DNA of 32,000 bases from Candidatus Omnitrophota bacterium (GTDB lineage: Bacteria > Omnitrophota > Gorgyraeia > Zapsychrales > JANLHA01): positions 2,610,001 through 2,642,000 of the forward strand of contig OY759724.1 of NCBI GenBank assembly GCA_963662715.1. Direction: 5' to 3'. The notes below the pieces were generated by a model. It saw only the letters and a program-made list of their open reading frames with translations. It made no database searches and was not told where the DNA came from. Made by a program: the position numbers and the translations under genes. Positions 1,832 through 32,000 of the stretch are shown piece by piece. The number at the start of each line of letters is the position of its first letter. Position 1 is the first letter of the stretch.

Positions 1832-3751
1832 TTAAAGCAGAAAAATGAGTACAAGAATCCCTATGGTCATATAGCCGGCCTGCGTTGTGGTCAAAAAAAA
1901 GAAAATAACAAGAAAAGGCAAAGACTTGTCCAGCAGGAATTTATTGATATGCTTATGTTTGAAGACAAGATATAAACTTGAATAACTTTGCCAGTTTAAT
2001 GTTGTCAGCCTGTTTTCTTTAAGCATTCTGGAATATAACTGCGTCCCCGGGAAGGGCGTTAAGACCCCCAGGCCGATTTTATAGGGCCGCAGGGCAAAGC
2101 AGAACTTCCACAATTTAAAAAGGCTCTTTATGTCCAAAGAATCGGATTCAAAACCGATTGTGAAATTTGCTTTAATCCTTATCCCGGCGTTTTTAATCCT
2201 TTGAGTGAAAAGATAATATTTTTCACTCATGGCGTATTTCCCCCCCTGTTTTTTCTCCGGAGAACTTGCAATAATCTCATATCCGATGCCTAAATTCCGG
2301 CAGCCGCTTTCTTTGGCCAAACGCAGCATTTTTTCATTGCTGCCGATGTCTATCGAAGAAAACCCTTCCCAGGTGAGCTTCAACGGGATCATGGAGGTGC
2401 ACAACTCCTGAAAATATCGAGGATCATTATAAAGGTTGGAATCCCGCAAGTTAACGAACCGGTATTTTTTTCTGACCTTTTGAAGAAGTTCAATGATTTC
2501 CGAGACGGGTTTATGTCTGATCCGGCCTTGATGAAGGATGGGGATAGAGCAAAATTCGCAGTGAAATTTGCATCCTCGCGAAGTCTCTAAACAGGATTTG
2601 ATCTGCTCGGGAGGAGACTGTAACAGTGCCTGGTGAACCGTGTCGGGCTCCGCATCAAGTGTTTGTGCTATGTATGTTTTTCTTAGGGAGCCGTTTTCGT
2701 AATCCCGGATCACGGCTGGCCAGACACTTTCCGCTTCACCTATGACAACACTGTCACAATACTCTAGAGCCTCATCCGGAAAGATTGAGGCGTGAAGTCC
2801 CCCGAGGATGACTTTGGACCCCCGCTCTTTGAAGGTCTTCGCTATTTCATAAACTTCCGGCGTTGTCTGGGTCAGGCAGGATATGGCGACAAGTTTCCCG
2901 GAGGCATAATACCGGTCCCGCCAGATGATTTGATAAAGATCCCTGAAATGGTAGCCTTTGGGGGACAAAGCTTTTAAAATAATAAAGACCGGAGGATAGG
3001 GGCGGCAGAGAAGATAATAAATCCGCTGAAAGATTCCGGTTCCTCCCGGTGGAACAATAAAATAGATTTCTTTTTTATGGGTAAAAAAAGATTTGATGGA
3101 ATATATTTCGATGAGGCATAGGGAGATCACTGTAAAAAGCAAAAGTTGCAGATATTTTGCGAAGAAAAGCCCGGCACGCATAATGAGTGAATCGTGATTC
3201 GCAAACGGAATAAAGGCATGATGAAATACTATATAAAGCGCAGCAAGCCCTGTGATCGTCCGGACATACTGGAAAGGTATATGGTATTTTTTCCGTGGAA
3301 TTTTGAATGGAAGAATGTGTTTCCTGTAGATAAAGGTATAGGCAAAAACATACTGTAGCAGAAGGTCTGTATGAACCGGGATATAGGGTTCGAGGGGTTT
3401 GGAGTTGGGAAAAGAGGAAAACAGGCTGAGGTTGATCGAAAAAACAAAGAATTCCAGGATGGCATAGATATACCAATATTTCTTAGCATTATCAAGGAAC
3501 TTGCTGAAGGAGACAATGATGTGTTCCCCGCTGACGAGTTCTATGATCGTCCCGTAAACGGCGCTGTAAATGAAGATTCTTAGGCCAATATGGGTCAGGT
3601 CTTCCAGGAAGGATATGAGGGCGTTGTGCGTCAGAAAGTTTGTCCTGTCCAGGAGTCCGAGGCAGAAGAAAAGAACGACGGCGGAAAAGAAAGAATGCAG
3701 TATCGAGAATGCCTGACTTAAAACGGATGGCTGTTGCGGATTTCTTCTCAT
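1832..3751 (-). CDS. B12-binding (class B) radical SAM enzyme with N-terminal ~230-aa multi-TM domain and a C-terminal TM helix
   Basis: 639 aa. Radical SAM cluster motif CKFHCEFC. Upstream Rossmann-like B12-binding region (KLVAISCLTQTTPEVYEIAKTFKERGSKVILGGLHASIFPDEAL...VVIGEAESVW). About 6 hydrophobic helices in the first 230 aa and a hydrophobic tail LPFLVIFFFLTT...IGILVLIFLL. Paralogue of 15300-17234. Confidence 0.85.
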   Translation of the reverse strand: MRRNPQQPSVLSQAFSILHSFFSAVVLFFCLGLLDRTNFLTHNALISFLEDLTHIGLRIFIYSAVYGTIIELVSGEHIIVSFSKFLDNAKKYWYIYAILEFFVFSINLSLFSSFPNSKPLEPYIPVHTDLLLQYVFAYTFIYRKHILPFKIPRKKYHIPFQYVRTITGLAALYIVFHHAFIPFANHDSLIMRAGLFFAKYLQLLLFTVISLCLIEIYSIKSFFTHKKEIYFIVPPGGTGIFQRIYYLLCRPYPPVFIILKALSPKGYHFRDLYQIIWRDRYYASGKLVAISCLTQTTPEVYEIAKTFKERGSKVILGGLHASIFPDEALEYCDSVVIGEAESVWPAVIRDYENGSLRKTYIAQTLDAEPDTVHQALLQSPPEQIKSCLETSRGCKFHCEFCSIPILHQGRIRHKPVSEIIELLQKVRKKYRFVNLRDSNLYNDPRYFQELCTSMIPLKLTWEGFSSIDIGSNEKMLRLAKESGCRNLGIGYEIIASSPEKKQGGKYAMSEKYYLFTQRIKNAGIRIKANFTIGFESDSLDIKSLFKLWKFCFALRPYKIGLGVLTPFPGTQLYSRMLKENRLTTLNWQSYSSLYLVFKHKHINKFLLDKSLPFLVIFFFLTTTQAGYMTIGILVLIFLL

Positions 3752-4045
3752 GAGGTCTCATTTTACAGCAATTAAAATAAATAATACAGGATATTATAAC
3801 ATACTTCTAGAGAAGCTGGCCGGGGAAATCCGCCTGCAAGGGCGATGATACCGCTTTTTGATCGTGTGAGGAATACAGCAAGTTGAATCCCGCGGGAAAA
3901 AACCGGATAATAATAATCCTTGGAATCACACCTTATTTTTGGTATAAATTGTTGCGAATAGGCTTTCCACGGTTTTTTCTTTTTATCGAAAAGAACCGTG
4001 TGGCTTCCAATCAAGGAAGCTCAGATAACAAAGGAGAGTGATATA

Positions 4046-4684
4046 ATGTGCGAGCAGAATTTAAACGATGACCAGAAAAAGAAAGATGTAAAACTGGAGA
4101 GGATGAGGTTCCCTAAATTAAAATTCACGGTCTTAAAAAATGAAGACGGTTTCTGCTACCATAATTATAAAGTCGGGGATGAATTTATTCTGGATGATTT
4201 TACGCACGCCCCGAAAAATTTCTGCCTGGGGATTGCCCATGCCGCTTTCCCCTGTATGCATGCTCTAACCTTCGGCGGGCGATTCCCGTTCAGGGAGAAT
4301 ACCGCTTCCATATGTGCAACGTGTCCGGACGGAGGGAAGATGGCCTTTAAGATCGAACTGCTGGATGAGAACGGTAATGTGGTTGTGGAGCCGCAAAAAG
4401 AGAAGCCCAAAGGCCCTAACCCGAAAAGGATGCTCATCGAAGTTGAATATAGTGACCAGACCTGTCCTTACGGCTATAAAGTCGGGGATCAATGGGAAGT
4501 CAAAGGCTTGCGGACTCCTGCGGAAATGTGCGGCGCCGCGTATCATTTGTTGTTCCCCGTTTTATTTGAAATGAATTTCGGCGCGTCATTCAGTTTTGAG
4601 AAGAACCCGCTTTGTAAGACGGGGATCACTTGTCCGGATGGGGGGAAAGTGAAGTTTAAAGTTACCCGGCTGGAGGACGAATAG
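4046..4684 (+). CDS. tandem-domain TIGR04076-like Cys-rich protein (two ~90-aa copies)
   Basis: ATG at 4046 follows AAGGAGA (4031-4037); I prefer it over the GTG at 3998 given in the ORF track. Copy 1: KFTVLKNEDGFCYHNYKVGDEF...FCLGIAHAAFPCMHAL...CATCPDGGKMAFKIELLDE. Copy 2: LIEVEYSDQTCPYGYKVGDQW...MCGAAYHLLFPVLFEM...CKTGITCPDGGKVKFKVTRLEDE. This matches my memory of the small TIGR04076 family (C...GxxF...FC....A......GG......C.DG.RPV.FKIERI). Confidence 0.65.
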   Translation: MCEQNLNDDQKKKDVKLERMRFPKLKFTVLKNEDGFCYHNYKVGDEFILDDFTHAPKNFCLGIAHAAFPCMHALTFGGRFPFRENTASICATCPDGGKMAFKIELLDENGNVVVEPQKEKPKGPNPKRMLIEVEYSDQTCPYGYKVGDQWEVKGLRTPAEMCGAAYHLLFPVLFEMNFGASFSFEKNPLCKTGITCPDGGKVKFKVTRLEDE

Positions 4685-6400: not shown

Positions 6401-6688
6401 ATGAATAACTTTCCGGAAAAAAATGCTCAAATAACATGGGATGAAGAGACAAAAAACAAATTCAGCCGATTGCTGGAGAAAATCCCGGTCTTTTTGCGAG
6501 GCATGGCTGAGAAACAGGTGTCCCAAAAGGCTGAAGATTTAGTCAAAGAAGAAAACCGTTCGGTTATTTGTGAGAAAGATTTGGTGGATGCGCTTTTTGC
6601 CGAAACGCCCTTCGGCTTTCATGGCCCGATGAAGAGTGATATGGAAGACCTCCATATAGATTATTCGCAGTACGGTTATCCGAAATGA
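6401..6688 (+). CDS. PCP reductase family (PCP_red domain) small protein
   Basis: 95 aa. ITWDEETKNKFSRLLEKIPVFLRGMAEKQVSQKAEDLVKEENRSVICEKDLVDA fits the W-x-x-E-A...IP-x-F-V/L-R....E..A pattern of the protochlorophyllide-reductase C-terminal domain family. GGGAGA lies upstream of the ATG. Confidence 0.55.
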   Translation: MNNFPEKNAQITWDEETKNKFSRLLEKIPVFLRGMAEKQVSQKAEDLVKEENRSVICEKDLVDALFAETPFGFHGPMKSDMEDLHIDYSQYGYPK

Positions 6689-6701: not shown

Positions 6702-6726
6702 CTCAGGTTTATTCCTGAGTTTTTTT
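6702..6726 (+). terminator. weak intrinsic terminator after the PCP_red gene
   Basis: CTCAGG (6702-6707) / CCTGAG (6714-6719) 6-bp stem, 6-nt loop, then T7 (6720-6726). It overlaps the last codons of the convergent ATPase gene. Confidence 0.3.
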
Positions 6727-8880
6727 AGGAGTGAAGATCTCTTTATTAAGAGGAATCCCGGAAGTCTCAAATTCCTGGTAACATCTCGGCACATAACCGG
6801 TCGCCACGTAGTCCCCGAGAACAGTTCCATCGACATCCGTCCCTTTCTGATCAAAAACAAAAATATCTTTTAATTCTAGGTAATGGTCTTCTGTCAGACC
6901 GGTGACTTCCGTGATTTCAACGATTTTTCGTGAACCGTCGGCAAAACGGTTGACATGAACGATAATGTCCAAAGCTGTTGAGATCATTTCATTGATGGCC
7001 CGCATCGGCAGATCGACCCCGGCCAAAAGGATCATGGAACTCATACGCACCAAAACGTCCTTGGTGGAGTTGGCGTGCAGGGTCGTCATGGACCCGTCAT
7101 GGCCGGTGTTCATCGCCTGAAGCATGTCCAGGATTTCCGGTCCGCGACACTCACCGACGATAATCCTGTCAGGCCGCATGTGAAGACTGTTCATGAAAAG
7201 GGTTCTGATCGGGACACGGCCTTTCCCTTCGATATTGGCCGGCCTGGATTCGAGCCTGATCCAGTGCCTTTTGTTGATCCGCAATTCCGCGGCGTCTTCG
7301 ATCGTAACGATACGTTCGTTGTCCGGAATGAAGGTTGAGACAATGTTGAGAAGCGTGGTTTTCCCGGACCCGGTTCCTCCTGACACGATGATATTTTTTC
7401 GGCCCGTAACGCAGGCCTGCAGGAAATCCTGCATATCTTGATTAAGGCTTTTGAATTTGTTCAGCAGGTCTTCTACTGTCGGCCGCTGGCGCCCGAATTT
7501 TCTGATCGTAATGACCGGCCCGGTTAAAGAAAGAGGAGGGATGATGGCATTGAAACGCGATCCGTCAGGAAGGCGCGCGTCGACCATCGGCGTTGATTCG
7601 TCAATACGGCGTCCTAACGGGGCGATGATCCTGTCGATGATAGAGCGCATCTGCCTTTCTGAAGTGAACTTGGCCGGCGTTAAGGTGAGTTTTCCGTATT
7701 TTTCAATAAAGACCTGTCTTTGGCTGTTTACCATAATGTCTGAAATAAGCTCATCGGCCAAATATTCCTCTAAAGCGCCTAACCCGAAGGCTTCACTGAC
7801 AACTTCATTTATGATCCGTTTCCGCTCCGGTTCTTCTTTCGTGATAGGACTGTTTATGTCGTTTAATATCTGCCCGACGACCGTGAGAGCTTTCTTTCGC
7901 TGCTCTTCCGTTTGTTCTTCATTGTTGAGGGACTCCGGGTTGATGTGATCGATATTCATGATCTGTATGAGTCTCTGGTGAATCTCTTTCTTCAGTCTCG
8001 TCTCATCATCTTCCTCATCAATTTCAATGGCTTTATCTTCTTTCTGCTGATTCACGCCAAGCTTCTGCCAAAGATCGCTGCTGGGGCTGCTTTTGATATG
8101 CCCGGCGACCTTGACCGTTCCCATATTTTGTATTTCGGTGAAATTTTCTTCTTTCTCTAATTCTTTGGCAAGGCCCATAATGCTCTGACTGACTTGCGCC
8201 TGAGGGCTGTCCAGGACACAAGGAACCCCCCGGTTCAGGGCCAGCCCCACGATCCGTCCATCAGAAGGAATTTTTGCCAGGATATCCAACCCAAGATCTT
8301 CCTTGATCTTTCCGGCGTCTATTGCACCGCGGCTCGCGGCCCGGTTCAGGACCAATTTGGTCATCTCCGGAGGTAACTTTATCCCTTTCAGCATATTTAA
8401 ACACCATTTCATCTTATCCGTAGCCAAGTCATCCGGTGTGGCCACAAGCGCGATGAGATTTGAATTTTGCAGCACGGTGACCAAAGCCTCGCTAAAAGCC
8501 CGCGGGGCATCGACCAGAATATAATCATATAAAGTGGCAGCTTTTTTAAAAAAAGCATTAAGGACAGCAGGCGTGAAATGGGATATCTGTTGGGGGCTTA
8601 ATATCGTAGGGAGAACGTCCAGGCCGCTGGAGTGGGTCGCCACGGCTTTTTTAATCAGGTCGGGATTATCAATGGATTCAATTTGGGCTAACAGATTGAC
8701 CAGCCCGTAGCGGCAGGGAACGTTGAGCATTTTATCGATATCGTGACCGGACTGAAAATTGAGTTCCAGCAATAAAACCTTGTGTTTCGCCTCGGCCAGA
8801 GCTGTTGCGGTATTGACGGCTATAAAGGTTTTTCCTACCCCGCCTTTATTGCTGAAAAATGAAATTGTTTTAGCTGCCAT
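6709..8880 (-). CDS. cpaF: ParA/MinD(CpaE/TadZ-like)-CpaF/TadA fusion ATPase, distal paralogue
   Basis: 723 aa. N-terminal deviant Walker A FFSNKGGVGKTFIAVN plus VLLLELN. Charged linker. C-terminal secretion-ATPase core GRRIDESTPMVDARLPDGSRFNAIIPPL, Walker A SGGTGSGKTTLLN, Walker B/Asp box IVTIEDAAEL, His box GHDGSMTTLHAN. Confidence 0.85.
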   Translation of the reverse strand: MAAKTISFFSNKGGVGKTFIAVNTATALAEAKHKVLLLELNFQSGHDIDKMLNVPCRYGLVNLLAQIESIDNPDLIKKAVATHSSGLDVLPTILSPQQISHFTPAVLNAFFKKAATLYDYILVDAPRAFSEALVTVLQNSNLIALVATPDDLATDKMKWCLNMLKGIKLPPEMTKLVLNRAASRGAIDAGKIKEDLGLDILAKIPSDGRIVGLALNRGVPCVLDSPQAQVSQSIMGLAKELEKEENFTEIQNMGTVKVAGHIKSSPSSDLWQKLGVNQQKEDKAIEIDEEDDETRLKKEIHQRLIQIMNIDHINPESLNNEEQTEEQRKKALTVVGQILNDINSPITKEEPERKRIINEVVSEAFGLGALEEYLADELISDIMVNSQRQVFIEKYGKLTLTPAKFTSERQMRSIIDRIIAPLGRRIDESTPMVDARLPDGSRFNAIIPPLSLTGPVITIRKFGRQRPTVEDLLNKFKSLNQDMQDFLQACVTGRKNIIVSGGTGSGKTTLLNIVSTFIPDNERIVTIEDAAELRINKRHWIRLESRPANIEGKGRVPIRTLFMNSLHMRPDRIIVGECRGPEILDMLQAMNTGHDGSMTTLHANSTKDVLVRMSSMILLAGVDLPMRAINEMISTALDIIVHVNRFADGSRKIVEITEVTGLTEDHYLELKDIFVFDQKGTDVDGTVLGDYVATGYVPRCYQEFETSGIPLNKEIFTPKKTQE

Positions 8881-8901: not shown

Positions 8902-11082
8902 TTAGGTTGCCACGGGATCGGAAGAAAAGATCCCTTTATCCACCTTGATCCCTTTGGTGATAAGTTCATCTGCACATTTAGGAACATAATGGCACGACTC
9001 ATAGAATCCTTTGACTTTCCCGTCAGAGTCCCGCCCCGTTTGTCTGAATACAAAAATATCTTTTAAAATCAGTTCATGTTCGCTTGTTATCCCGGCGATT
9101 TCCGTGACCCCGGTGACTTTTCGTGACCCGTCTGTAAACCGGGCCATATGAACGATAACATTAATGGCCGAAGACATCATTTCATTGATGGCCCGCATGG
9201 GAAGTTCAATTCCGCTTAACAATATCATGGAACTCATGCGAATTAAAACATCGCGGGTTGAGTTGGCGTGCAGGGTCGTCATGGAGCCGTCATGTCCTGT
9301 GTTCATCGCCTGCAGCATGTCCAGAACTTCCGGCCCGCGGCACTCGCCGATGACGATGCGGTCCGGACGCATTCTCAAAGAGTTGACGAAAAGATCCCTC
9401 AGCGAAACTTCCCCGACCCCTTCAACGTTGGGGGGGCGGGATTCCAGCCGGCACCAGTGCTCTTTTTTTAAGCCTAATTCGGCGGCGTCTTCAATTGTGA
9501 TAATGCGCTCCCCGTCCGGGATAAATTCCGATAAAACGTTTAAAAGGGTCGTTTTCCCGGATCCGGTTCCCCCGGATATGATAACGTTCATGCGGCCCAA
9601 AACACAGGCATAAAGGAAATCTCTCATGGGGGGAGATAAACTCCGGAATTTTTGGATAATTTCGTCAACGGTGAGTTTTTCCGCCCCGAATTTCCGGATC
9701 GTTATAGACGGTCCGGTTAAACAGAGAGGAGGGATGATGGCATTAAATCGTGAACCGTCCGGAAGCCGGGCATCCACCATAGGGGTCGATTCATCGATAC
9801 GGCGGCCCAGGGGGGCGATAATCCGGTTTACGATGGCTCTTAACTGCTGGTCTGAAACGAACTGATGTTTGGTCAAGCGAAGTTGTCCCTCTTTTTCTAT
9901 ATATATCTCTTTACAGCTGTTAACCATGATATCGGTGACAGCAGGGTCTTCCATGACTTCCTCTAATATCCCTAATCCGAAAGCTTCATTAACAATTTCA
10001 TTAACCGTCTTTAAACGTTGTTCATGGGAAGCAATAAAAGCTCCTTCTTCTTCCAGCAGAGAGCTGACAATTTTTTTCGCAGATTCTTTTAATTGCTGGG
10101 CTTTTGACTGGTCGGTAAAATGTTCCGGCGTCAAAGATTCGAGATCCAGGCGGGTAATCAGTAAGGCATGGATTCTCCGTTTTAAGGCGAAAAGTTTTTC
10201 CTTTTCCGCGGCGGCTGCATCGTTTGCTGCAGATACGTCCTGCTTTTGTTCTCCGCTGAACTGATCCCAGAAAGTCTTGGAGTCTGCAAATTTTCCTGTC
10301 TCAACGTGGCTTCTTTCGTCCCCGGCGGTATGAAAAAACACATCTTTTTTCTTTAATTCATTAACGATTTTGCGGAAGGCATCGGCGATCGGGCCTTTAG
10401 GATTGTCAATGACGGAAGGGACTCCGCGTTCCAGCGCCTGTCCGACCCCGCTCCCATCGGAAGGAATGCGTCCGATGATATCTATATCCAAGGCATCACG
10501 GACTTCCTGCCAAGGGACGCCTCCCTGGCTTGCCGCCCGGTTTAAGACCAGTTTCACCATTTTGGTGGGGAAATGCATGTCTTCGAGAATTTTAATACAC
10601 CAGCGCAATTGATAAACCGCTAAAACGTCAGGAGTGCCGATCAGCAAAATAATGTTTGCGAGGTCGAGGACATTGAGCATCATTTCGCTGAATGTCTGCC
10701 CCAGATCTATAACGATATAATCGTAGCTCTGTGAGACCATCTTCAGAAACGCCTTGATATCTTTTGAAGCCATGGTGCTGATTTCTTGCGGATCTGTAAT
10801 GACGGGAAGGAAATCAAGTCCGGACGAATGGGAGATAACGTGTTTCCTGACAATATTGAATCCCGGCTGTTCTGTCTCCTGGATTTCCGTGAGCATCTGG
10901 GCCAGTGATTTTTCCGGAGCCACACCAATCATGCGGGCCATATCGTGTCCGGCCTGAATGTCCAAATCAAGCAATAATACCCGTCTCCCGGATAGGGCCC
11001 AGGAAGAGGCTAAATTGACAGCAACAAACGTTTTGCCGACGCCACCTTTATTGCTAAAAACAGGGATGATTTTTGAATCCAT
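8902..11082 (-). CDS. cpaF: ParA/MinD(CpaE/TadZ-like)-CpaF/TadA fusion ATPase, proximal paralogue
   Basis: 726 aa with the same architecture: VFSNKGGVGKTFVAVN, VLLLDLD; GRRIDESTPMVDARLPDGSRFNAIIPPL, SGGTGSGKTTLLN, IITIEDAAEL, GHDGSMTTLHAN. It is 21 nt upstream of the paralogue on the same strand. Confidence 0.85.
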   Translation of the reverse strand: MDSKIIPVFSNKGGVGKTFVAVNLASSWALSGRRVLLLDLDIQAGHDMARMIGVAPEKSLAQMLTEIQETEQPGFNIVRKHVISHSSGLDFLPVITDPQEISTMASKDIKAFLKMVSQSYDYIVIDLGQTFSEMMLNVLDLANIILLIGTPDVLAVYQLRWCIKILEDMHFPTKMVKLVLNRAASQGGVPWQEVRDALDIDIIGRIPSDGSGVGQALERGVPSVIDNPKGPIADAFRKIVNELKKKDVFFHTAGDERSHVETGKFADSKTFWDQFSGEQKQDVSAANDAAAAEKEKLFALKRRIHALLITRLDLESLTPEHFTDQSKAQQLKESAKKIVSSLLEEEGAFIASHEQRLKTVNEIVNEAFGLGILEEVMEDPAVTDIMVNSCKEIYIEKEGQLRLTKHQFVSDQQLRAIVNRIIAPLGRRIDESTPMVDARLPDGSRFNAIIPPLCLTGPSITIRKFGAEKLTVDEIIQKFRSLSPPMRDFLYACVLGRMNVIISGGTGSGKTTLLNVLSEFIPDGERIITIEDAAELGLKKEHWCRLESRPPNVEGVGEVSLRDLFVNSLRMRPDRIVIGECRGPEVLDMLQAMNTGHDGSMTTLHANSTRDVLIRMSSMILLSGIELPMRAINEMMSSAINVIVHMARFTDGSRKVTGVTEIAGITSEHELILKDIFVFRQTGRDSDGKVKGFYESCHYVPKCADELITKGIKVDKGIFSSDPVAT

Positions 11083-12445: not shown

Positions 12446-13156
12446 ATGAACAAAAATAATTTGGGCCACAGGGTATTCTCTTTAGTGCTGGGTTTTCTGT
12501 GGATAATATTTTTTTATCCCCTGTTTAAGGCTTTGCGAGCCAGTAGCGGTCAGCTGTCTTTTGAGAATATCCTCCGTTCTTTTTATCTGCCGCAGTCCAA
12601 TCTTCAGCTTGGAGAGATTTCGGGGATTAACATCCATTGGTATGTCTATGGCGTTTTATCTTTCTTCCTTATCATAGGTTATTATGTCAAACATCATTGG
12701 CTTGCAGGGAGGGCCCTCCCGCCCTGTTTCCACCCCAAAACAGTTGTGATCGCTTTCCTGGCGCTTGTGATCGCGGGACAAACGGCAAACCGGTTGATGT
12801 CTTTCGGGCCGGAAATCCGGTATTACATAACGAAAGACAAACAGCAGAGATATTTTTCTTTTTTCCGCGGGCTGCACGATTTCGCCCGGCAATGCAAAAA
12901 TGTTTTGCCGGGAGCGCACAATGCCGAATTTATAAGTGATCTGGATTTCAGCGAGGAGGTTCCGGGCCTCTTCACATATTGGTGTCTGTCCTATTATCTT
13001 TATCCGATTGATATTAAAGATATTCATCCGCAGAAAAGCAAGGATTGTGTCATTGTCTTTTCCGGCAACAATCCTAAAAGCAGACTCCCCCGGGATTCCT
13101 ATGAAAAGATTTATCTTATCGGCAATCAGGGCCTTGTGGCGATAAAAAAACAATGA
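12446..13156 (+). CDS. hypothetical membrane protein
   Basis: 236 aa. About 3-4 hydrophobic helices in the N-terminal half (VFSLVLGFLWIIFFYPLF, WYVYGVLSFFLIIGYYV, VVIAFLALVIAG). No family recognised and no obvious RBS. Confidence 0.45.
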   Translation: MNKNNLGHRVFSLVLGFLWIIFFYPLFKALRASSGQLSFENILRSFYLPQSNLQLGEISGINIHWYVYGVLSFFLIIGYYVKHHWLAGRALPPCFHPKTVVIAFLALVIAGQTANRLMSFGPEIRYYITKDKQQRYFSFFRGLHDFARQCKNVLPGAHNAEFISDLDFSEEVPGLFTYWCLSYYLYPIDIKDIHPQKSKDCVIVFSGNNPKSRLPRDSYEKIYLIGNQGLVAIKKQ

Positions 13157-13163
13157 TATTCGT

Positions 13164-14582
13164 ATGGAACTTTACAGCTTAACTGCGGCTTTGCTCATTC
13201 CTTTGGGCCTGGGATATGTTGTGCTGCGGTTTTTACCGCCGGGCAAGAACCTCCCGTTTTTACTGTCCTTGGCTTTGGCTTTCGGTTTGGGAACCGGGAT
13301 GCTGACGCAATGGATGTTGTTGCTTGATATTTTCAGCATCCGCTTCAGCGCCAACACGATCAACATGCCGCTGATCGTATTTCTTGTTTTTACGGGGGTG
13401 GGGGTATGGACGCTTACAAGAACACGATATCCCCGTAAAGAGCCTCTTCCCGGACAGGTCATGGGGACGCCTCAAAAACAACTGCGGTTTTCTATGAAAG
13501 CTTTGTTCGTTGTCCTTTGTGTCGTATATGTTGTTGTTATGACAGCTTATGTTTTCTGGCGGGCTCTAAGTATCCCGATAGAAAGTTATGATGCCCTGGT
13601 TAAGATCTCTTATAAGGCAAAAATTTTCTTTTTTGACCGCAAAATACACCTCTTGAGACTTCCTCACAACTATTATCCTCTCCAGGTGCCGCTGCTGCAA
13701 TCCTGGGTCAGCTTTGTCCTGGGGCGATGGGACGATTATTGGACGAAGATATTTTTTCCGCTTTATTTTTCTTCTTATCTCATCATTCAGTTTTATTTTT
13801 TGAAAACGATAGCGGATAAATACAAAGCTCTTATGGGCGCCGGACTGCTTGTTTCTTCCAACTTGTTTATTTTTCATGCCACGATCGCCTATATGGATTT
13901 TACGATCATGTATTACAACTGCGTGGCGCTTCTTTTGATGATTTTATGGCATCGATCAGAAACAAAGGAGGCCTGGCTTATGACAGCCGGCCTTTTTTCC
14001 GGCATGATGACCTTTGTGAAAAGTGAAGGGACAGTGTACTTAATCATCCATGTTATTTTGCTGCTGGTGCTTCTGAAACAATTAAAGGGCGTCCGGCTGA
14101 AAGAAAAAATTTCCCATTTCCTGCGTTTTATTATCCCCAGCGCCGGCGTTTGCAGCATTTTTTCCCTGTATAAGATTATACAGGGGGTTGCTCCGTTCGG
14201 TCACGACAGGCGGATGATCTGGGATTTTGGAATGTCAAGCATAACCCGTTTGCCCAAGGTCATGGCCGCTTATGCTGATGACTTGTTTTTGAGCGGGAAC
14301 TGGAGCCTGCTTTGGTTTGTGTTCTTCTTTTTGATTATTTTTAACAGAAAAAAACTCTGTTTCTACTCGCGATGGCTTAGTCTGGCTTTGGGATTGTTTT
14401 TCCTGGTGTACACAGGTCTTGCTCTGACAACGCGGTCATTTGCTTATATCGGCGGTGAGTATACGGAACTTGGCCTGTCCCGGCTTATTTTGCATTTTTT
14501 CCCTTTGATTATCCCTGGGATCATCCTTGCTTATGATGCCGAGAGTGCTCCTGTTCAGGAATCATACCCGGGGAACGGCTGA
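13164..14582 (+). CDS. polytopic integral membrane protein (>=10 TM), possibly a GT-C/ArnT-PMT-like glycosyltransferase fold (weak guess)
   Basis: 472 aa, almost entirely hydrophobic helices with short loops. The overall layout resembles GT39/GT83-type enzymes, but I saw no diagnostic motif. Confidence 0.55.
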   Translation: MELYSLTAALLIPLGLGYVVLRFLPPGKNLPFLLSLALAFGLGTGMLTQWMLLLDIFSIRFSANTINMPLIVFLVFTGVGVWTLTRTRYPRKEPLPGQVMGTPQKQLRFSMKALFVVLCVVYVVVMTAYVFWRALSIPIESYDALVKISYKAKIFFFDRKIHLLRLPHNYYPLQVPLLQSWVSFVLGRWDDYWTKIFFPLYFSSYLIIQFYFLKTIADKYKALMGAGLLVSSNLFIFHATIAYMDFTIMYYNCVALLLMILWHRSETKEAWLMTAGLFSGMMTFVKSEGTVYLIIHVILLLVLLKQLKGVRLKEKISHFLRFIIPSAGVCSIFSLYKIIQGVAPFGHDRRMIWDFGMSSITRLPKVMAAYADDLFLSGNWSLLWFVFFFLIIFNRKKLCFYSRWLSLALGLFFLVYTGLALTTRSFAYIGGEYTELGLSRLILHFFPLIIPGIILAYDAESAPVQESYPGNG

Positions 14583-14605: not shown

Positions 14606-14657
14606 CGGAAGGTGGTACAATGACATTAACCTCCTTTAATATTTGTTATTTTTGGTT

Positions 14658-15257
14658 ATGAATATTGCCGTTTGTTCAATCAAAGGACTAAGAAGCACAA
14701 TCCTCAGGGATTATTATGTGTACCGTTGGTTCCTGTATCTGCTTCGTCAGTCTTCCTTGCGGTCCGAGCTGAGTGCTTGCCAGGAGAACCGCATCATTTA
14801 TGAACAGCTGGGAAAAATCACCCGTCTCCAATGGTTTTTGGGGATACTTATCCTCGGTCTTTCCATGCTGTATCTAAAAACGAAGTTTTTCTTGTTGTTG
14901 ATTTCTCTTGCCGTTGCGTGTCTTTGCGGCTTTAAAGTTTTGGCTGTGAAAAAAAGATATGTCGCTGATTTAAGCCTCCATGTTATTGAAAGGGATTTTC
15001 CGGCCGATAAGCTGGCGAAGACAACGCTTTATCAAATAGGCGAGATATTCGGGGAGAAATACCAGGTCCTTTCTCTGGTGGACGCCATATATCATTTGGA
15101 TAAAATTTACAGATTTACTTTGATATTCTCTTTTTTCCTGGTCGCTTATATTGTTAATATCGGAAACTGGAAGATCCGGCAGGCTTCATTCTTCTCCTTG
15201 TATTTCACCGTTGTTTTTCTCGTCAATACCCCGTTTTTCTACAAAAAGTTTAAATAA
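14658..15257 (+). CDS. hypothetical membrane protein
   Basis: First ATG at 14658 (the ORF track starts at a TTG at 14643). Hydrophobic helices WFLGILILGLSML, FFLLLISLAVACLCGF, FTLIFSFFLVAYIV and FFSLYFTVVFLV. No family recognised. Confidence 0.45.
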   Translation: MNIAVCSIKGLRSTILRDYYVYRWFLYLLRQSSLRSELSACQENRIIYEQLGKITRLQWFLGILILGLSMLYLKTKFFLLLISLAVACLCGFKVLAVKKRYVADLSLHVIERDFPADKLAKTTLYQIGEIFGEKYQVLSLVDAIYHLDKIYRFTLIFSFFLVAYIVNIGNWKIRQASFFSLYFTVVFLVNTPFFYKKFK

Positions 15258-15299: not shown

Positions 15300-17234
15300 C
15301 TAGAAAAGGAAATGCCTTAACCCGAAGAAATAGGCGTCAAGCAGAATAACGGCGGTGATAACAAGGCCGAAGGAGCAGGTCGTGGCCAGACAGAGGATGA
15401 AATGAAGCGGAAAAAGGAAATGGAACAAATTGTGGCTGAATGAACGGTGCTCGAAAACCAGGTTGTTTAGCCCGTAATACCTCCAGTTGTAATTGGTGAT
15501 GCGGTCTTCTCTCAGCAGCTTGTAGTATATCTGGGAGCCCGGTAAAGGCGTTAAGACCGAAATGATGGTCAGATAAGGCATAATAAAAAAACAGTATTTC
15601 CATATATGCAACATCGTGTGATAATTATCCGCTTCAAATCCGAGGATGAAGTGCGCTTTGATCGTGATCCCCGTTTTTTTGACTTTCTTGGTTAACTCAA
15701 TATACTGATCGGCCAAAGAAAATTTGCCTTTCTTGTGCTTCTCCCGTGATTCTCCGGTGATTTCATATCCGAACAACAGCTGAACACAGCCGCTTTCCTT
15801 CGCCAGTCTTAAAAGTTCTTCATCCTTGGCAATATCAATGGAACATTGGCTGGCCCAGGAGATTTCTAAAGGGATGAGCGCTCTGAAAAGCTCCTTGGCA
15901 TATTCAGGGTCTGCAATGATGTTATTATCGATAAAGGACAGGATCTGGTTCCGGCGCGGATGTATTTTCTGGATTAAGGCCACAACCTCCTCGACAGGCT
16001 TTTTCCTGACGACACCTTTTGTGAACAGGGGGATCGTGCAGAAATGGCAGTGGTATTTGCACCCCCGTGTGGTTTCCAGGAAGTCTTTGATAACGGCCGG
16101 AGGAGAGTTCAGCAGTTCCTGCTGAACATGGCGGTGAAAATCCTCCAAGGGAACGCCCTGGTAGATGCTTTTCAGGGTGTGATTTTCATAATCCCTGACC
16201 ACTTCCGTCCAGACGCTTTCGGCTTCACCGGTAACAACAGCATCGCAAAATTGCAGGGCTTCCTGCGGAAGGTAGGTGACATGCGGCCCGCCCATGACGA
16301 CCGTCGAACCACGTTTTTTAAATTCCTTGGCGATTTTATAAGCCTCACAGCAGTTTGAGGTGTAACAGGTCACGGCAACGAGTTTATTCCCTCGATAGAA
16401 TCTTTTTTTCCAGCTGATTTTATTGAACTCTTTGAAGTGATAGCCCTTGGGCGTCAGAGCCTTTAAGGTCAGGAAAAAGGGGGGGTACCAGCGGAACAGC
16501 AGAGAAGCGTCTCCTAACACGATCCCTCCGGAAACAGGGTTGACAAGATAGATCTCTTTTTCTTTGTCAAAGTGTTTTTCGATATCCGCATAACGGTCCA
16601 GGATAGTCATGGAAAAATATGTGAAGATAAAGAAATGCAGATAGGTATAGATGACAATAGGTTCATTACTGAGGAAGTCAATGGGGAAAAATTTTTTTAC
16701 GTTGCCGATCAGGATATTTAAGATAAATAAAACGGTCACGGAAAGAATATGCCCGGGGGGAACGGCTATTTTTTTATAAGGAAGCCCGAATTTTCTTATA
16801 TATTTATCCCTGATGATGAAAAAGCTGATCAGATAAATAAAGAATAAATCAAAAAAGAAATTGTCATAAAGAAACGCCAGATTGAACGCATTAAAAAATA
16901 CGGCAAAAAAGATATTCGCGCAAAAATGCAGGATCAGCAAGGGGAGATAAATTTTCCAGTAACGTCTGGCATTCTTGAAGAAAATCTTATTTGTTATGGC
17001 AACCTGTTCTTGGCTGGCAAGCTCGATAATGGTGCCGTACATCCCGCTGAAAAGAAATATTTTAAGGAATATTAAAAGGAACATGAACAGGACGGTCAGG
17101 CCAGGGGAGGCGGAAATAAAGGCAGGAGGGTCAACAAACAGGACGTGCAGGAAACAGGCGATTAACAGAAACAGAAGCGCGGAATGCAGGATGTCAAAAC
17201 TTTTAAGCAAAATTGTCCATGCCCCGTTTTTCAT
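15300..17234 (-). CDS. B12-binding (class B) radical SAM enzyme with N-terminal multi-TM domain and C-terminal TM helix (paralogue of 1832-3751)
   Basis: 644 aa. CKYHCHFC cluster motif. B12-binding region KLVAVTCYTSNCCEAYKIAKEFKKRGSTVVMGGPHVTYLPQEAL...VVTGEAESVW. Co-linear with 1832-3751 along the whole length, including the TM domain motif MYGTIIELA/VYGTIIELV. Confidence 0.85.
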   Translation of the reverse strand: MKNGAWTILLKSFDILHSALLFLLIACFLHVLFVDPPAFISASPGLTVLFMFLLIFLKIFLFSGMYGTIIELASQEQVAITNKIFFKNARRYWKIYLPLLILHFCANIFFAVFFNAFNLAFLYDNFFFDLFFIYLISFFIIRDKYIRKFGLPYKKIAVPPGHILSVTVLFILNILIGNVKKFFPIDFLSNEPIVIYTYLHFFIFTYFSMTILDRYADIEKHFDKEKEIYLVNPVSGGIVLGDASLLFRWYPPFFLTLKALTPKGYHFKEFNKISWKKRFYRGNKLVAVTCYTSNCCEAYKIAKEFKKRGSTVVMGGPHVTYLPQEALQFCDAVVTGEAESVWTEVVRDYENHTLKSIYQGVPLEDFHRHVQQELLNSPPAVIKDFLETTRGCKYHCHFCTIPLFTKGVVRKKPVEEVVALIQKIHPRRNQILSFIDNNIIADPEYAKELFRALIPLEISWASQCSIDIAKDEELLRLAKESGCVQLLFGYEITGESREKHKKGKFSLADQYIELTKKVKKTGITIKAHFILGFEADNYHTMLHIWKYCFFIMPYLTIISVLTPLPGSQIYYKLLREDRITNYNWRYYGLNNLVFEHRSFSHNLFHFLFPLHFILCLATTCSFGLVITAVILLDAYFFGLRHFLF

Positions 17235-18532: not shown

Positions 18533-20317
18533 ATGATGTGTCTTGGGAAAAGAACCTGTCTGGCTGTTTTCGTGATGTTTTGTCTTGTGGGGATGACAAA
18601 ATTAAGTTTTGCCGACCTTATTTTGTGGAATAAATTAGGCACAGAGGATGAAATTTTGCATAGTGAGATCGGTGAAAGTTTATCTTGGACCGGCAGTGAA
18701 GAATACCAGGATTGTCAATATAATATGGGATCATATAGTAATGATAATTCTAACTACATAACTTTTCCAGGAACAGGTTTCACTCCGAATGCTTTTACTG
18801 TGGAGTTTTGGTTGAAAACAGATTGGGATTGTGTGAGTGGAACAGCTCAAGAGACAGGGTATTATTCTTACTTTCAGTGGTATTATGATAATGATAATCG
18901 AATTATGGCTCAAATTGATCATACGGGATGTTACCTTAATATTAGAGGAGAAGGTGTGCATAATTATCAATATTGGACACCTTCGCAGTTAAATTGGCAA
19001 GCTGGGGATATTGTTCATTTGGCTTGGGTATATAATCGTGATGGAATAGACGGGACCACAGATACGAAACGTCTATATTTTAATGGAAATGTCGTTGCCT
19101 CAACAACAGAACAACCAGAGGCGTTTTCTGTTTCTGGAGGAATGTTTTATCTTTTACAGCATCAAGATTTAAGCCGTACACTGAAGGGAACGGTTGATAA
19201 TTTAAAAATATATGATTATGCCAAGACAGATTTTTCCGACCGGTTCAATGAAGGGACAGCCTTGAGTATTACGCTCGAACCGCTGGAAGCGGTTGATGCC
19301 GGCGCACAGTGGCGGTTGACGGGCGGGCCGGATACGGACTGGCATGACAGTGAAGAAACCCTGCTGAACCTTCCTGCCGGAACATATAATTTGAACTTCA
19401 AGAATGTTATCGGCTGGGCCAAGCCGTCCAATCAGACTATAGAAATCATCGAAGGTCAGGCAACAACAGCAACCGGAACGTATGAATTATTGGCAAAAAG
19501 TTCCGTGACCTGTCTTATAGAACCTCCGGAAGCGATTGCTGATGGTGCCAAATGGAAACTGACAACCGGGCCGGATACGGAGTGGCATGAGAGCGGGGAA
19601 GTGCTTAATGATATTCCGGTGGGCAGTTATAAAGTGAAGTTTAAAAATATTTACGGTTGGGAGAAACCTGTCAACCAAACGATTGAAGTTGTGGAAGGAG
19701 TGACGGCCGAAGCATACGGCCTTTATGAACTACTGCCGCTTAGTTCGGTAACGGTAATCATAGAACCTCCTGGGGCTGTAGCCGATGGGGCAAAATGGCG
19801 GTTAACCAAAGGGCCGGATACGGGCTGGCATGAGAGTGGGGATATTATTACGGATATCCCGATCGGGACATATAACATTCGGTTTAAGACTATCACGGGG
19901 TGGGCCAAGCCGGAAGATCAGGCCCTAGAGATAGTCGAAGGTGTAATAGCCGAAGGATATGGAGAATATACCTTGCTGCCGTTGAGTTCGATGACCTGCA
20001 CGATCGAACCGCCGGATGCTGTAGCAGCGGGAGCGCAGTGGCGGTTAACGGGTGGGCCGGATACATCCTGGCATGCAAGCGGGGATGTATTAAATGATAT
20101 CCCGATCGGTAACTATACCATTAAGTTTAAGACAATTTACGGCTGGGAGAAGCCGGTGAATCAAAGTATCGAGGTCGTGGAAGGTTCCACAGCTTCTGCC
20201 ACAGGAATATATACAGAGGTAACGGCTAAAGGGAGTGTGAGTATTACGATTGAACCGCCGGAAGCCGTGGCAGTTGGAGCGCAGTGGCGGTTAATGAGCG
20301 GGCCGGATAACGTATAA
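18533..20317 (+). pseudogene. 5' fragment of a giant secreted adhesin-like gene (signal peptide, LamG/ConA-like domain, repeats 1 to 5a), interrupted by IS256-family insertion
   Basis: RBS AAGGAGA. Signal peptide MMCLGKRTCLAVFVMFCLVGMTKLSFA. LamG-like motifs TVEFWLKTDW, IVHLAWVYNRDG, RLYFNGNVVAS, GTVDNLKIYDYA. The frame runs 4 codons into the IS end (PDNV*). Confidence 0.8.
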
Positions 20318-20407: not shown

Positions 20408-21598
20408 ATGAACAATACTATTATTACAGTTAATGAAGAAAAAATCCAAGAAAAACTTGATGAGAAGATTCGGGGCAGCGTGGAAGAGACATTGAATAAT
20501 TTATTGAATGCAGAAGCCGATCACTTGGTTGGAGCCGAGAGATATCAACGCACAGAAGCCCGGAAGGACACACGGGCGGGCTATTATGAGCGGCAATTGC
20601 AGACACGAGTAGGAAAAGTAAAATTAAGAATGCCGAAGCTAAGAAAATTACCGTTTGAGACAGCCATAGTTGAACGATATAAACGACGAGAGATATCAGT
20701 AGAAGAAGCGATGATGGAGATGTATTTAGCAGGAGTGTCGGTAAGACGAGTTGAAGATATAACTGAAGCATTATGGGGATCAAAAGTATCGGCTAGCACA
20801 GTCAGCCGAGTAAACAAGAAGATCTATGAACGGATCAATCAATGGAGACATGAGCCTTTAGATGAAGAATATCCGTATGTTTATATGGATGGGATTAGCT
20901 TAAAGCGGAGCTGGGGTGGTGAAGTCAGCAATGTATCCGTCTTAATTGCCATAGGAGTTGATTGGCATGGATATCGAAAGATCATCGGGATTATAGAGGG
21001 GGCCCGGGAAGACAAGACGGGATGGCAAGCGTTGATGAGACATTTAAAGCAACGAGGACTTAACCGGATTCAATTATTGATCACCGATAAATGTCTGGGA
21101 TTGCTCAATGCCGCAGAAGAAATATATCCCATGGCTAAATGGCAAAGATGTATGGTTCATTTCTACAGAAATGTTTTCCGTTATGTGCCAAACGGAAAAA
21201 TTAAGACGGTTGCCACCATGCTAAAAGCTATTCATGCCCAAGAATGTTCGTCAGCCGCCTTTAACAAAGCCCAGGCGATTTATCAAAAACTCAAAGAGAT
21301 GAAGTTAAATAAAGCCGCCGAATGTGTTAATGAAGGCATTGGTGAGACTTTAACATACATGGACTTCCCGGTAGAACATTGGATACGGATTCGAACGAAT
21401 AATCCAATGGAGCGGATTATCAGAGAGATACGAAGAAGAACGCGGGTTGTGGGATGTTTTCCAGATGGGGAATCAGCATTAATGTTAGCTTCCGGACGGT
21501 TACGCCATATTGCAGGAACATACTGGAGTCAAAAAAAGTATTTGAACATGGATTACTTACGCAAGCAGCGGCTGCTCCCGGAACTCGCAGCAGTTTGA
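20408..21598 (+). CDS. IS256-family (Mutator-type) transposase
   Basis: 396 aa. Characteristic N-terminus ...LNNLLNAEADHLVGAERYQRTEARKDTRAGYYERQLQTRVGKVKLRMPKLR, then MEMYLAGVSVRRVEDITEALWG, YVYMDGISLKRSW, LLITDKCLGL, WQRCMVHFYRN, NPMERIIREIRRRTRVV. RBS AAGGAGGA. Confidence 0.95.
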   Translation: MNNTIITVNEEKIQEKLDEKIRGSVEETLNNLLNAEADHLVGAERYQRTEARKDTRAGYYERQLQTRVGKVKLRMPKLRKLPFETAIVERYKRREISVEEAMMEMYLAGVSVRRVEDITEALWGSKVSASTVSRVNKKIYERINQWRHEPLDEEYPYVYMDGISLKRSWGGEVSNVSVLIAIGVDWHGYRKIIGIIEGAREDKTGWQALMRHLKQRGLNRIQLLITDKCLGLLNAAEEIYPMAKWQRCMVHFYRNVFRYVPNGKIKTVATMLKAIHAQECSSAAFNKAQAIYQKLKEMKLNKAAECVNEGIGETLTYMDFPVEHWIRIRTNNPMERIIREIRRRTRVVGCFPDGESALMLASGRLRHIAGTYWSQKKYLNMDYLRKQRLLPELAAV

Positions 21599-30461: not shown

Positions 30462-30528
30462 GGGAATTGGGCTCCTTTCCTTGGAACTCAATTCTACACC
30501 ATTTGTTTAAATTTGTTAACTAGGGTCA

Positions 30529-32000
30529 CTATACTTGTTCTTGCGGGAGATGCCTCATCCGGCGGGGTTTGCGGAATCCCAGCTTTCCCGTGATGGTCCG
30601 GTAGATATGAAAGAGATAGTACTTGGCATAAATGATGTGATCCGCTTCCTTTGTGAGCAATCCGGAGAGCAGGTCAAGCGTAAAAGCTATCCCTTCGTTA
30701 ATAAAAGGCGGAATCGCTTTGAAAAGACCCGGTTTAAGCTTTTTTCGGAATCTGACCGGTGTATAGGGAAGAAGTTTATAGATAACCTGGTAGATTTCGT
30801 AAATTTTGAGCTGGTCTTTGGAAATTAAATTATGGCTGTGTTTAAATGAATCCAGGGAAATGCCTTCATTTAACCGTTCGGCATCTTCGTGTGTGATAAG
30901 TCCCATCTCAAGAGCCGTTTTCTGAATGGCTGTCCCCGGATAAAAATTGACCCAGTAGGAATGGATTCTGGAGGGTGTGTTCCGGACATAGAACTGGCGG
31001 GCTGTCTCTTGCGCTTCGGGCGGTTCCCCGGGCAATCCCAGCATATGGTCTATGCGCGCCCGGATGCGGTATTTCTTTGTCAGGCGGATGATTTCGGCGG
31101 TTTTTTCTTTTGTCTCATGGCGTTTCAGATACTTGCGTTTGTATTCATCATCCAGGGACTGCACCCCTATCTGGGCGGCATAGCAGCCCGCGGCGGCGAG
31201 GCTTTTCACGGTCGGTTCGTCCAGATGGTTGACATGTGAGAAGATCTGGAAGGGTATCTGAATGTCTTTTTTATACGCTTCCAAGAAAGAATTCAGCCAT
31301 TTTTTATCAAACGTGAAAACATCATCAAAAAATTCTATCATACGGACGTTATACCGTTTTTTTGCCCAGCGCAGTTCCGTGAGCACATGATCGGCAGAAC
31401 GATAACGGACGTATTTCCCTTTATCTTTCTCCGGCAGATCTGCGAAAAAGCTGTTAAAGCAAAAGGTGCAGCGGTAGGGGCAGCCCCGGGACGCCATTGT
31501 GACATAATAGTCCGATAAATTAAAATAATCTTCCCATAAAGATTTATCGAAAAAGGGTAAGCTGTCCAGATCCTGAATAAATCCTGTCTGCGGGCCTTGA
31601 ATGATCTGTCCGTCAGCCGATTTGTATCTTGTGTTCGGCAGGGGAGAGGTGACCTCTCCTTTCTCAACCGCCTCCAGTATTTCTATAAAAGCGATATCCC
31701 CTTCTCCCAGGCAGATATAATCGACTTCCGGGCGGGCTATGACGCGTTCCGGAACGGCTGTCGTATGGACGCCGCCGAAAACTGTTTTGACGTGCGGGAA
31801 TATCTCTTTGGCTTTTTGTGCAATCGTGAGGGACCAGCGATAGGAACCTGAAAGGGGAGAAAAAGCAATGATGTCCGGCCGGTAATGTTCGATGGTATGC
31901 AGGACATCTTTTGTGTCATCAAAAAACCGGGATACAGGAGGGCAGGTCATATGCAGCCGGTCGTTGAATAAAGCAACACTGAAGGCCAAACGGACATCAT
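30529..32000 (-). CDS. B12-binding (class B) radical SAM enzyme, soluble type; 5' end beyond the window, 3' end altered by the IS3 insertion
   Basis: B12-binding region PDIIAFSPLSGSYRWSLTIAQKAKEIFPHVKTVFGGVHTT...YICLGEGDIAF. Cluster motif CPYRCTFC. The frame is open to the window edge (the track's start at 31989 is a TTG). The stop codon TAG (30529-30531) lies within the extended IS3 end. Confidence 0.85.
   Translation of the reverse strand, partial: DVRLAFSVALFNDRLHMTCPPVSRFFDDTKDVLHTIEHYRPDIIAFSPLSGSYRWSLTIAQKAKEIFPHVKTVFGGVHTTAVPERVIARPEVDYICLGEGDIAFIEILEAVEKGEVTSPLPNTRYKSADGQIIQGPQTGFIQDLDSLPFFDKSLWEDYFNLSDYYVTMASRGCPYRCTFCFNSFFADLPEKDKGKYVRYRSADHVLTELRWAKKRYNVRMIEFFDDVFTFDKKWLNSFLEAYKKDIQIPFQIFSHVNHLDEPTVKSLAAAGCYAAQIGVQSLDDEYKRKYLKRHETKEKTAEIIRLTKKYRIRARIDHMLGLPGEPPEAQETARQFYVRNTPSRIHSYWVNFYPGTAIQKTALEMGLITHEDAERLNEGISLDSFKHSHNLISKDQLKIYEIYQVIYKLLPYTPVRFRKKLKPGLFKAIPPFINEGIAFTLDLLSGLLTKEADHIIYAKYYLFHIYRTITGKLGFRKPRRMRHLPQEQV

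Follow-up and report, generated by a model that had tools for sequence, protein, structure and literature searches.

We identified an integral-membrane radical S-adenosylmethionine (SAM) protein that is specific to Omnitrophota and has a genomically linked membrane partner; both are encoded in a stretch of 32,000 nucleotides from a Candidatus Omnitrophota bacterium (GenBank assembly GCA_963662715.1, contig OY759724.1, positions 2,610,001 to 2,642,000; the whole stretch is referred to below as the window). The window contains two genes for this polytopic B12-domain radical SAM protein: paralogue A (1832..3751, minus strand), an open reading frame (ORF) of 639 amino acids (aa) with an ATG start, and paralogue B (15300..17234, minus strand), which encodes 644 aa with the same architecture. 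A first-pass annotation, made from the letters alone, had claimed permanent membrane integration of the enzyme, and this is borne out by hydropathy, the positive-inside rule and an AlphaFold2 model. The catalytic scaffold is already known, while the polytopic integration, the family-specific transmembrane (TM) domain, the partner family and the enzyme-partner fusion are new; no description of integral-membrane radical SAM enzymes or of this family was found in the searchable literature. A protein identical to paralogue A was already present in public collections (P0001). As the substrate, we favor a membrane-resident lipid or other hydrophobic molecule, with a confidence that stops a little short of an even chance.

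In paralogue A, an N-terminal 6-TM domain (residues 1-216; 3104..3751, minus strand), delimited by hydropathy, the positive-inside rule, the AlphaFold2 helices and the translation, precedes a Rossmann-type B12-binding-like domain with five beta-alpha units in the AlphaFold2 model (residues ~228-361; 2669..3070, minus strand), a radical SAM partial TIM-barrel core assigned from PF04055 and Foldseek, in which modeled strands and helices alternate (residues ~385-580; 2012..2599, minus strand), and a pair of kinked hydrophobic helices at the C-terminus, assigned from hydropathy, conservation, AlphaFold2 and the translation (residues 604-638; 1838..1942, minus strand). Both catalytic domains named by the first-pass annotation were found by Pfam: PF02310 (B12-binding) matched residues 287-347 with 37.5 bits (cut-off 32.1), over the C-terminal half of the model only (model positions 54-120), and PF04055 (Radical_SAM) matched residues 389-534 with 29.5 bits, exactly the cut-off. 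The translation contains the CxxxCxxC [4Fe-4S]-binding motif of the radical SAM superfamily as CKFHCEFC (C394, C398 and C401; 2549..2572, minus strand), and these three cysteines are invariant across 133 full-length homologues, in whose alignment paralogue A keeps 24 of 24 invariant residues. The superfamily's partial (beta/alpha)6 TIM-barrel core is also present by PF04055, and the Rossmann-type domain lies N-terminal of it, as in the class B layout, by PF02310 and AlphaFold2. A GGxH motif in the Rossmann domain comprises G317, G318 and H320, the last two being invariant in the family.

Topology was assigned from hydropathy, the positive-inside rule and the AlphaFold2 model. A Kyte-Doolittle scan of paralogue A as a single sequence presented four to six N-terminal hydrophobic segments and one C-terminal segment; hydropathy averaged over the 133-sequence family presented six N-terminal segments (18-33, 46-67, 98-112, 126-138, 162-178 and 199-210) and one at the C-terminus (611-639). 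The AlphaFold2 model, built with the family alignment as input (pLDDT 94.5, pTM 0.91), agrees, with N-terminal helices of 24-32 residues each at 10-36, 44-74, 82-113, 124-149, 160-183 and 189-216; the N-terminal TM helices on which the claim of membrane integration hinged are thus present, as is the hydrophobic helix that had been placed after the catalytic part. The mean number of lysine and arginine residues per successive loop alternates across the family (3.2/0.8/4.1/0.8/5.6/1.1/4.0), indicating by the positive-inside rule that the topology is N-in and the catalytic domain cytoplasmic. After the six helices, the model continues with a five-stranded Rossmann unit (228-361), the radical SAM barrel and the kinked helices (604-622 and 624-638); the high pTM and the short, confident linker between TM6 and the first beta strand suggest that the membrane part and the catalytic part are packed into a single body rather than being joined by a flexible tether. 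The C-terminal helix pair, with a conserved TTS..G kink, may anchor the protein in the membrane or be re-entrant. Conservation in the TM domain is strongest where TM2, TM3 and TM4 reach the cytoplasmic side (G64, G67, E71, S74, E76, N88, W93, Y96, K144 and Y145); the family motif YGTIIELVSGE, followed by N88, W93 and Y96, corresponds to the cytoplasmic end of TM2 and the start of TM3 of paralogue A, and K144 sits at the end of TM4. A basic residue is conserved in the middle of TM2 (K58; R58 in paralogue A).

Pfam searches with the window paralogues and 19 diverse N-terminal domains (E <= 1) presented no consistent family match for the TM domain, and when 30 members were scanned at the same threshold for a known Pfam family covering either this domain or the partner described below, only isolated single matches were obtained. 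When 1.84 billion representative proteins were searched with a profile built from the N-terminal domain, 66 matches were obtained in total, all of them with the ~640-aa architecture or probable short fragments, save one protein of 845 aa (P0166) in which the match begins at residue 214. Because it lacks a Pfam match and is found solely in this architecture, the membrane domain is an unannotated module specific to its family.

A full-length search identified 321 relatives, nearly all of ~640 aa, with Candidatus Omnitrophota as the named sources; a scan of one genome per species identified 525 relatives, of which 80 were kept as related loci (numbered from L001). The matches bearing the TM domain came from Omnitrophota metagenome-assembled genomes (MAGs) and one single-amplified genome (some of the MAGs are labeled "uncultured Planctomycetales" and one Elusimicrobia), and the polytopic family is restricted to Omnitrophota. 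Based on ORF length and hydrophobic segments, the relatives were divided into class i (~640 aa, with a C-terminal TM in addition to six N-terminal TM helices), class ii (~440 aa, C-terminal hydrophobic helices only, mostly Omnitrophota) and class iii (~445 aa, soluble, Clostridia and Bacteroidota). Class i is monophyletic in a neighbor-joining tree of the catalytic domains (52 sequences, together with four ORFs cut short at contig ends), and its genes occur singly or in arrays of two to four; the existence of tail-anchored (~440 aa) and soluble relatives suggests a stepwise recruitment to the membrane. Class iii genes form part of arrays in Clostridia and Bacteroidota MAGs (L077, L078 and L079), where two to five tandem B12-domain radical SAM genes adjoin a gene for a GH3-type adenylating enzyme and one for a ~235-aa protein without known role, which is an uncharacterized cluster type; the soluble cluster in L078 also includes a transporter with a sterol-sensing-domain match just at the Pfam cut-off and a match to the resistance-nodulation-division (RND) family below the cut-off.

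The first-pass annotation had also proposed a full-length paralogue with identical architecture at 15300-17234, and paralogue B is indeed 39% identical to paralogue A over the full length, N-terminal domain included, with Pfam matches to B12-binding (37.2 bits) and Radical_SAM (53.6 bits); the N-terminal regions of the two have the motif YGTIIEL.S.E in common. What the annotation overlooked is that the enzyme has a conserved genomic partner, a membrane protein of ~200 aa, which we spotted by clustering all ORFs of the related loci, in most of which its homologues are encoded directly downstream of the radical SAM gene. In the window, the partner gene (14658..15257, plus strand) encodes a predicted 4-TM protein of ~199 aa from an unannotated family and is convergent to paralogue B, with a gap of 42 bp; the longest ORF (14643-15257) has a TTG start, but a public record (P0170, 199 aa) fits the ATG at 14658, which is the likely start. 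When counted with a hidden Markov model (HMM) across 43 class-i modules, the partner was convergent or fused in 35 (32 convergent modules, one locus, L026, with the partner between two enzyme genes, and two fusions), while seven modules, including that of paralogue A, had no adjacent or fused partner. A reciprocal look-up starting from three partner homologues identified a directly convergent B12-domain radical SAM gene of 650-652 aa in four of four places. A single partner gene may be preceded by an array of two, three or four enzyme genes. In unfused modules the two genes are never on the same strand, and 13 of 32 loci show an overlap of 4-46 bp between the 3' ends; such conserved convergence of genes whose products are fused elsewhere suggests regulation through antisense transcription or transcriptional interference. 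Both fusions are found in L040 as uninterrupted ORFs (847 and 865 aa) with the partner domain N-terminal to the TM and radical SAM parts (partner-HMM E-values of 4e-31 and 6e-27), and the independent 845-aa protein P0166 agrees with this layout. A six-frame search of the whole window with the partner HMM detected a single copy (14640-15254) and none beside paralogue A, whose closest relative (L001, 53% identical) does have a partner gene; the ORF at 11-1600 was considered as a partner of paralogue A and rejected, as its C-terminal TM region is unrelated to the partner family.

The partner presented no Pfam, NCBIfam or PADLOC match; the one match that PADLOC gave was a weak generic one to radical SAM. 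The AlphaFold2 model of the partner (pLDDT 82) had no fold match in the PDB at E < 1, and an S-component of an energy-coupling factor transporter or a BtuM-like cobalamin carrier was rejected on this basis. The four hydrophobic helices, together with basic residues that follow TM2 and others at the C-terminus, predict an N-in/C-in topology, which the N-terminal fusion in L040 fits. Invariant polar residues (D113, T123-Q126, E129, S139-D142, Y145-D148, Y151 and R152) are dense in the segments RDFP..LAKTTLYQ.GE.Y and SLVDAIYHLDKIYRF, and the helical region that carries them is predicted to face the cytoplasm.

The tight linkage of the partner to the enzyme and its many invariant residues could also mean that the enzyme modifies the partner or a different protein of the envelope (a pilin or lipoprotein, say), for example by C-methylation, with tandem paralogues installing several modifications on one target. 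MgmA, a B12-dependent radical SAM enzyme that methylates a protein side chain, is among the nearest solved structures, and the arrays in which one partner gene comes after two to four enzyme genes would fit this alternative as well. Yet an enzyme fused to its own substrate, as in L040, would be limited to a single turnover, which would be unusual; the invariant residues of the partner form an extended polar helical patch that resembles a binding or functional site more than a single target; and the partner is missing from the seven modules mentioned above. Moreover, a search for precursor peptides detected no short ORF conserved next to 41 class-i loci, which disfavors a peptide substrate. Contexts of RiPPs (peptides made on the ribosome and modified after translation) or of antibiotics, which would have spoken for soluble substrates, were not encountered: orthologues lie outside such clusters, without a consistent biosynthetic context. 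We therefore regard a membrane-protein substrate as unlikely, and continue to favor a lipid or other hydrophobic molecule of the membrane.

Matches of the paralogue A model to the PDB by Foldseek were confined to the catalytic part and included AprD4 (PDB 6fd2), MgmA, TsrM, CysS and MiaB/RimO, all soluble enzymes, with a probability of 1.00 to several radical SAM structures; a single-sequence PDB search with the catalytic part gave mainly spurious antibody matches and was discarded. AprD4 was the top match both by fold (E = 1.5e-14, TM-score of 0.66 on the target) and by sequence, using the family profile (E = 1e-11; MgmA, 9e-9). The Rossmann domain of AprD4 is not known to bind cobalamin, in contrast to MgmA, TsrM and CysS, which bind it, and we know of no universal sequence motif for cobalamin binding in class B radical SAM enzymes; cofactor use and cobalamin binding by paralogue A are therefore putative. 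The description of the catalytic part as "textbook" class B was consequently right about the layout and overstated otherwise, given that the closest fold belongs to an enzyme not known to bind cobalamin. None of the three classes reached the cut-off of any named NCBIfam family. For paralogue A, the highest score was obtained with TIGR04013 (MJ_1487; 87 bits, cut-off 251), and scores were also far lower than the cut-offs for TIGR04014 (MgmA; 36 bits, cut-off 360), AprD4 (24 bits, cut-off 500), the MiaB/RimO model TIGR00089 (33 bits, cut-off 251), the RiPP-maturing models rSAM_ocin_1 (17.7 bits, cut-off 281.85) and ApyD (48.7 bits, cut-off 750), and the anaerobic cyclase BchE (57.4 bits, and 70.1 bits for paralogue B; cut-off 481); HpnP was absent from its NCBIfam matches. 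The conserved cysteines of the Rossmann domain are C291 and C332 only, without a triad, unlike the three-cysteine cluster of UPF0004; as a single cysteine triad is conserved in the protein, a MiaB- or Tes-type auxiliary cluster is unlikely.

These matches bear on a second alternative, in which the membrane domain would merely localize or scaffold an enzyme that acts on a soluble cytoplasmic substrate with a cobalamin-free Rossmann domain like that of AprD4, perhaps beside a transporter or envelope-assembly machine. The rank of AprD4 by sequence and fold, the Pfam B12-binding match to half of the model and the existence of ~440-aa soluble relatives in other phyla are all in line with it. However, a simple anchor would need neither six helices with interface motifs and a charge in mid-membrane nor a second anchor at the C-terminus and a membrane partner, and the TM domain is detectably conserved throughout the family and never exchanged for another anchor. 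We give this alternative a low probability.

A membrane-resident substrate is the most economical explanation of the six conserved helices with their mid-membrane basic residue and conserved interface motifs, the second anchor, the co-evolving membrane subunit and the paralogue arrays. Under this proposal, the six TM helices and the C-terminal helix pair would clamp the cytoplasmic Rossmann domain and radical SAM barrel onto the inner face of the membrane, and in most family members the enzyme would work with the ~200-aa 4-TM partner, the two making up a unit with some 11-12 TM helices, and one partner could be shared by several enzyme paralogues. The membrane domain may capture a hydrophobic substrate through the mid-membrane basic residue and the polar cluster of E71, S74, E76, N88, K144 and Y145, and bring an unactivated C-H position to the active site; the likeliest candidates would be lipids, or polyprenyl- or quinone-type molecules, with an acyl, alkyl or isoprenoid chain as the part acted on. 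A 5'-deoxyadenosyl radical would abstract hydrogen, and methyl transfer from methylcobalamin, cyclization, desaturation or C-C coupling could follow, with separate paralogues acting at separate positions or steps. The physical complex itself, the nature of the substrate, cobalamin use and the reaction type are all inferred here. A more specific version, in which the enzyme and its 4-TM partner constitute a machine specific to the phylum that, in paralogue arrays, methylates, cyclizes, cross-links or desaturates the hydrocarbon chains of membrane lipids, is a tentative suggestion that we hold to be rather doubtful.

The combined helix count lies within the range typical of transporters (about 11-12 TM helices), so the assembly of enzyme and partner might instead alter a molecule during its import, export or flipping. 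The partner would then be a separate and sometimes fused membrane subunit, and the soluble sister genes of L078 are accompanied by a transporter that matches RND and sterol-sensing-domain models weakly. However, no transporter family resembles either the TM domain or the partner, and the surroundings include no conserved ATPase or energy-coupling component; we consider a transport-coupled modification very improbable.

Several observations weigh against action on a membrane-resident lipid or hydrophobic molecule. The top structural match, AprD4, acts on a soluble aminoglycoside, and the next, MgmA, methylates protein. Scores for lipid-related families are far lower than the cut-offs: paralogue A reached 63.4 bits for HpnJ (cut-off 577.6), 32.9 bits for HpnR (cut-off 650) and 63.1 bits for TIGR04072, a B12-domain radical SAM family of ladderane-type lipid biosynthesis (cut-off 360), for which paralogue B reached 53.1 bits. 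No genes for lipid biosynthesis or lipid transport are conserved beside class-i modules, the neighbors being heterogeneous. Cobalamin binding is putative, and no cobalamin or SAM riboswitch was detected in the window or six related loci. In addition, paralogue A departs from the family at two highly conserved positions of the TM domain (G64A and Y145H) and belongs to the minority of modules that have no partner gene next to the enzyme gene, and any lateral path that would bring the substrate out of the bilayer to the active site is hypothetical. The lipid or other membrane-resident substrate put forward in the first-pass annotation is a reasonable, if putative, inference.

Beyond the partner, no gene is consistently linked to class-i modules; the commonest neighbor is a generic response regulator, and tightly coupled upstream genes were rejected as conserved operon partners because they vary (an MnmC-like methyltransferase, a ThiF-like protein and unknowns). 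L017, L081 and L082 are syntenic with the paralogue B locus and presented, in this order, CpaF-type ATPases, partner, enzyme, a 148-aa protein and a response regulator; this gene order is contiguous in those loci and interrupted in the window by insertion sequences and surface-protein genes, among them a Mutator-family transposase gene (20408-21598, plus strand), an IS3-type (rve) element (29398-30491, minus strand) and large surface-protein genes (18533-20317, 21635-24301 and 25865-28111). Two tandem genes on the minus strand (6709-8880 and 8902-11082) each encode a fusion of ~725 aa between a MinD/ParA-type ATPase and a TadA/CpaF-type secretion ATPase, and in L017 and L081 this pair likewise adjoins the module. 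Two multi-TM proteins (plus strand) are encoded upstream of the partner gene, one of 236 aa (12446-13156; no Pfam or NCBIfam match) and one of 472 aa (13164-14582; no Pfam, NCBIfam or PDB match). Membrane glycosyltransferases similar to PMT_2/GT-C are found near the module in a few loci (L001, L004, L010, L042 and L047).

The TIGR04076-like gene described in the first-pass annotation as divergent from paralogue A (3998-4684, plus strand; 228 aa with two TIGR04076 repeats, 88.8 bits, cut-off 33) is real and divergent, but has no conserved association with the enzyme; as it occurs in no other related locus (a singleton among the 80), it was rejected as a component of the system. A gene for a 95-aa DUF2621 protein (6401-6688, plus strand; 31.7 bits, cut-off 27.7) also presented a weaker, sub-threshold match to PCP_red, the C-terminal domain of a protochlorophyllide reductase subunit. 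Near the end of the window, a gene (30529..31989, minus strand) encodes a soluble 486-aa radical SAM protein with a B12 domain by Pfam, which belongs to a different, unnamed family (best NCBIfam match HpnJ, 127 bits, cut-off 577.6); orthologues are found near the module in L017 (68% identity) and L004 (55% identity), and this protein is a tentative member of the same system. A c-di-GMP-I-GGC variant riboswitch (RF03167; 28273-28354, plus strand; 60.8 bits, gathering threshold 59, E = 1.6e-11) lies directly upstream of a gene encoding a 269-aa response regulator (28431-29240). This aptamer is kept in L017 (7152-7233, minus strand), upstream of a regulator orthologue with 71% identity that sits two genes from the orthologue of paralogue B. 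Promoter and terminator scans were at chance level.

Omnitrophota is a widespread uncultured phylum, and homologues of Mss, Hbs and ElbD have been reported in some of its MAGs, which makes unusual lipids in Omnitrophota plausible, with no tie to this enzyme family. To our knowledge, the envelope chemistry of the phylum is uncharacterized. Lipid-acting radical SAM enzymes characterized so far are reported as soluble or peripheral, and how inert tails are extracted from the bilayer is an open mechanistic question; a polytopic enzyme with a membrane subunit and a confident predicted structure provides a defined system for studying the delivery of bilayer substrates. Two families of membrane proteins without annotation also come to light here, together with a trait that is confined to Omnitrophota. 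Should the substrate be a lipid, orphan methylated or cyclized bacterial lipids in anoxic environments could be accounted for by the paralogue arrays, and a lipid-tailoring machine of the kind proposed here would make Omnitrophota a source of unusual, as yet unassigned bacterial lipids and represent the first example of a polytopic radical SAM complex that modifies lipids.

Among known systems, AprD4, a radical SAM 1,2-diol dehydratase, has the Rossmann-plus-barrel layout in common with this family, but is soluble, acts on an aminoglycoside and presents only 16-17% identity. The archaeal B12-domain radical SAM proteins of the MgmA/TIGR04014 and TIGR04013 families provide the closest NCBIfam model (TIGR04013) and the second-best fold (MgmA); unlike the Omnitrophota family, they are soluble and without a membrane partner. 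The tetraether synthase Tes and the bacterial Mss, the synthases of membrane-spanning lipids, are radical SAM enzymes that act on the tails of membrane lipids; Tes, however, lacks a B12 domain and carries additional Fe-S and rubredoxin domains, whereas a single cysteine triad is conserved in this family. The archaeal GDGT ring synthases GrsA/B, the GMGT/GDGT methylases Gmm/Cgm, the tetraether desaturase Ted and the hopanoid methylases HpnP/HpnR have, like this family, a Rossmann (B12-type) domain together with a radical SAM domain, and the lipid-modifying B12-domain enzymes carry out their chemistry at the membrane (cyclization by Grs, methylation by Gmm and Cgm, desaturation by Ted), acting on inert lipid C-H bonds at the cytoplasmic face with paralogues specialized by position or reaction; this chemistry provides the strongest precedent for the lipid proposal made here. 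The first-pass annotation had regarded membrane integration as unusual for such enzymes, and published descriptions concur: Cgm and Ted are predicted to be peripheral (10.1101/2025.10.20.683597), and Tes has no clear TM helices, none being predicted by TMHMM (PMC8941075). While the lipid-modifying B12-domain enzymes are predicted to be peripheral or soluble, the family described here, set apart from Grs, Gmm, Cgm and Ted by descriptions rather than by sequences, combines a 6-TM domain, a C-terminal anchor and a membrane partner.

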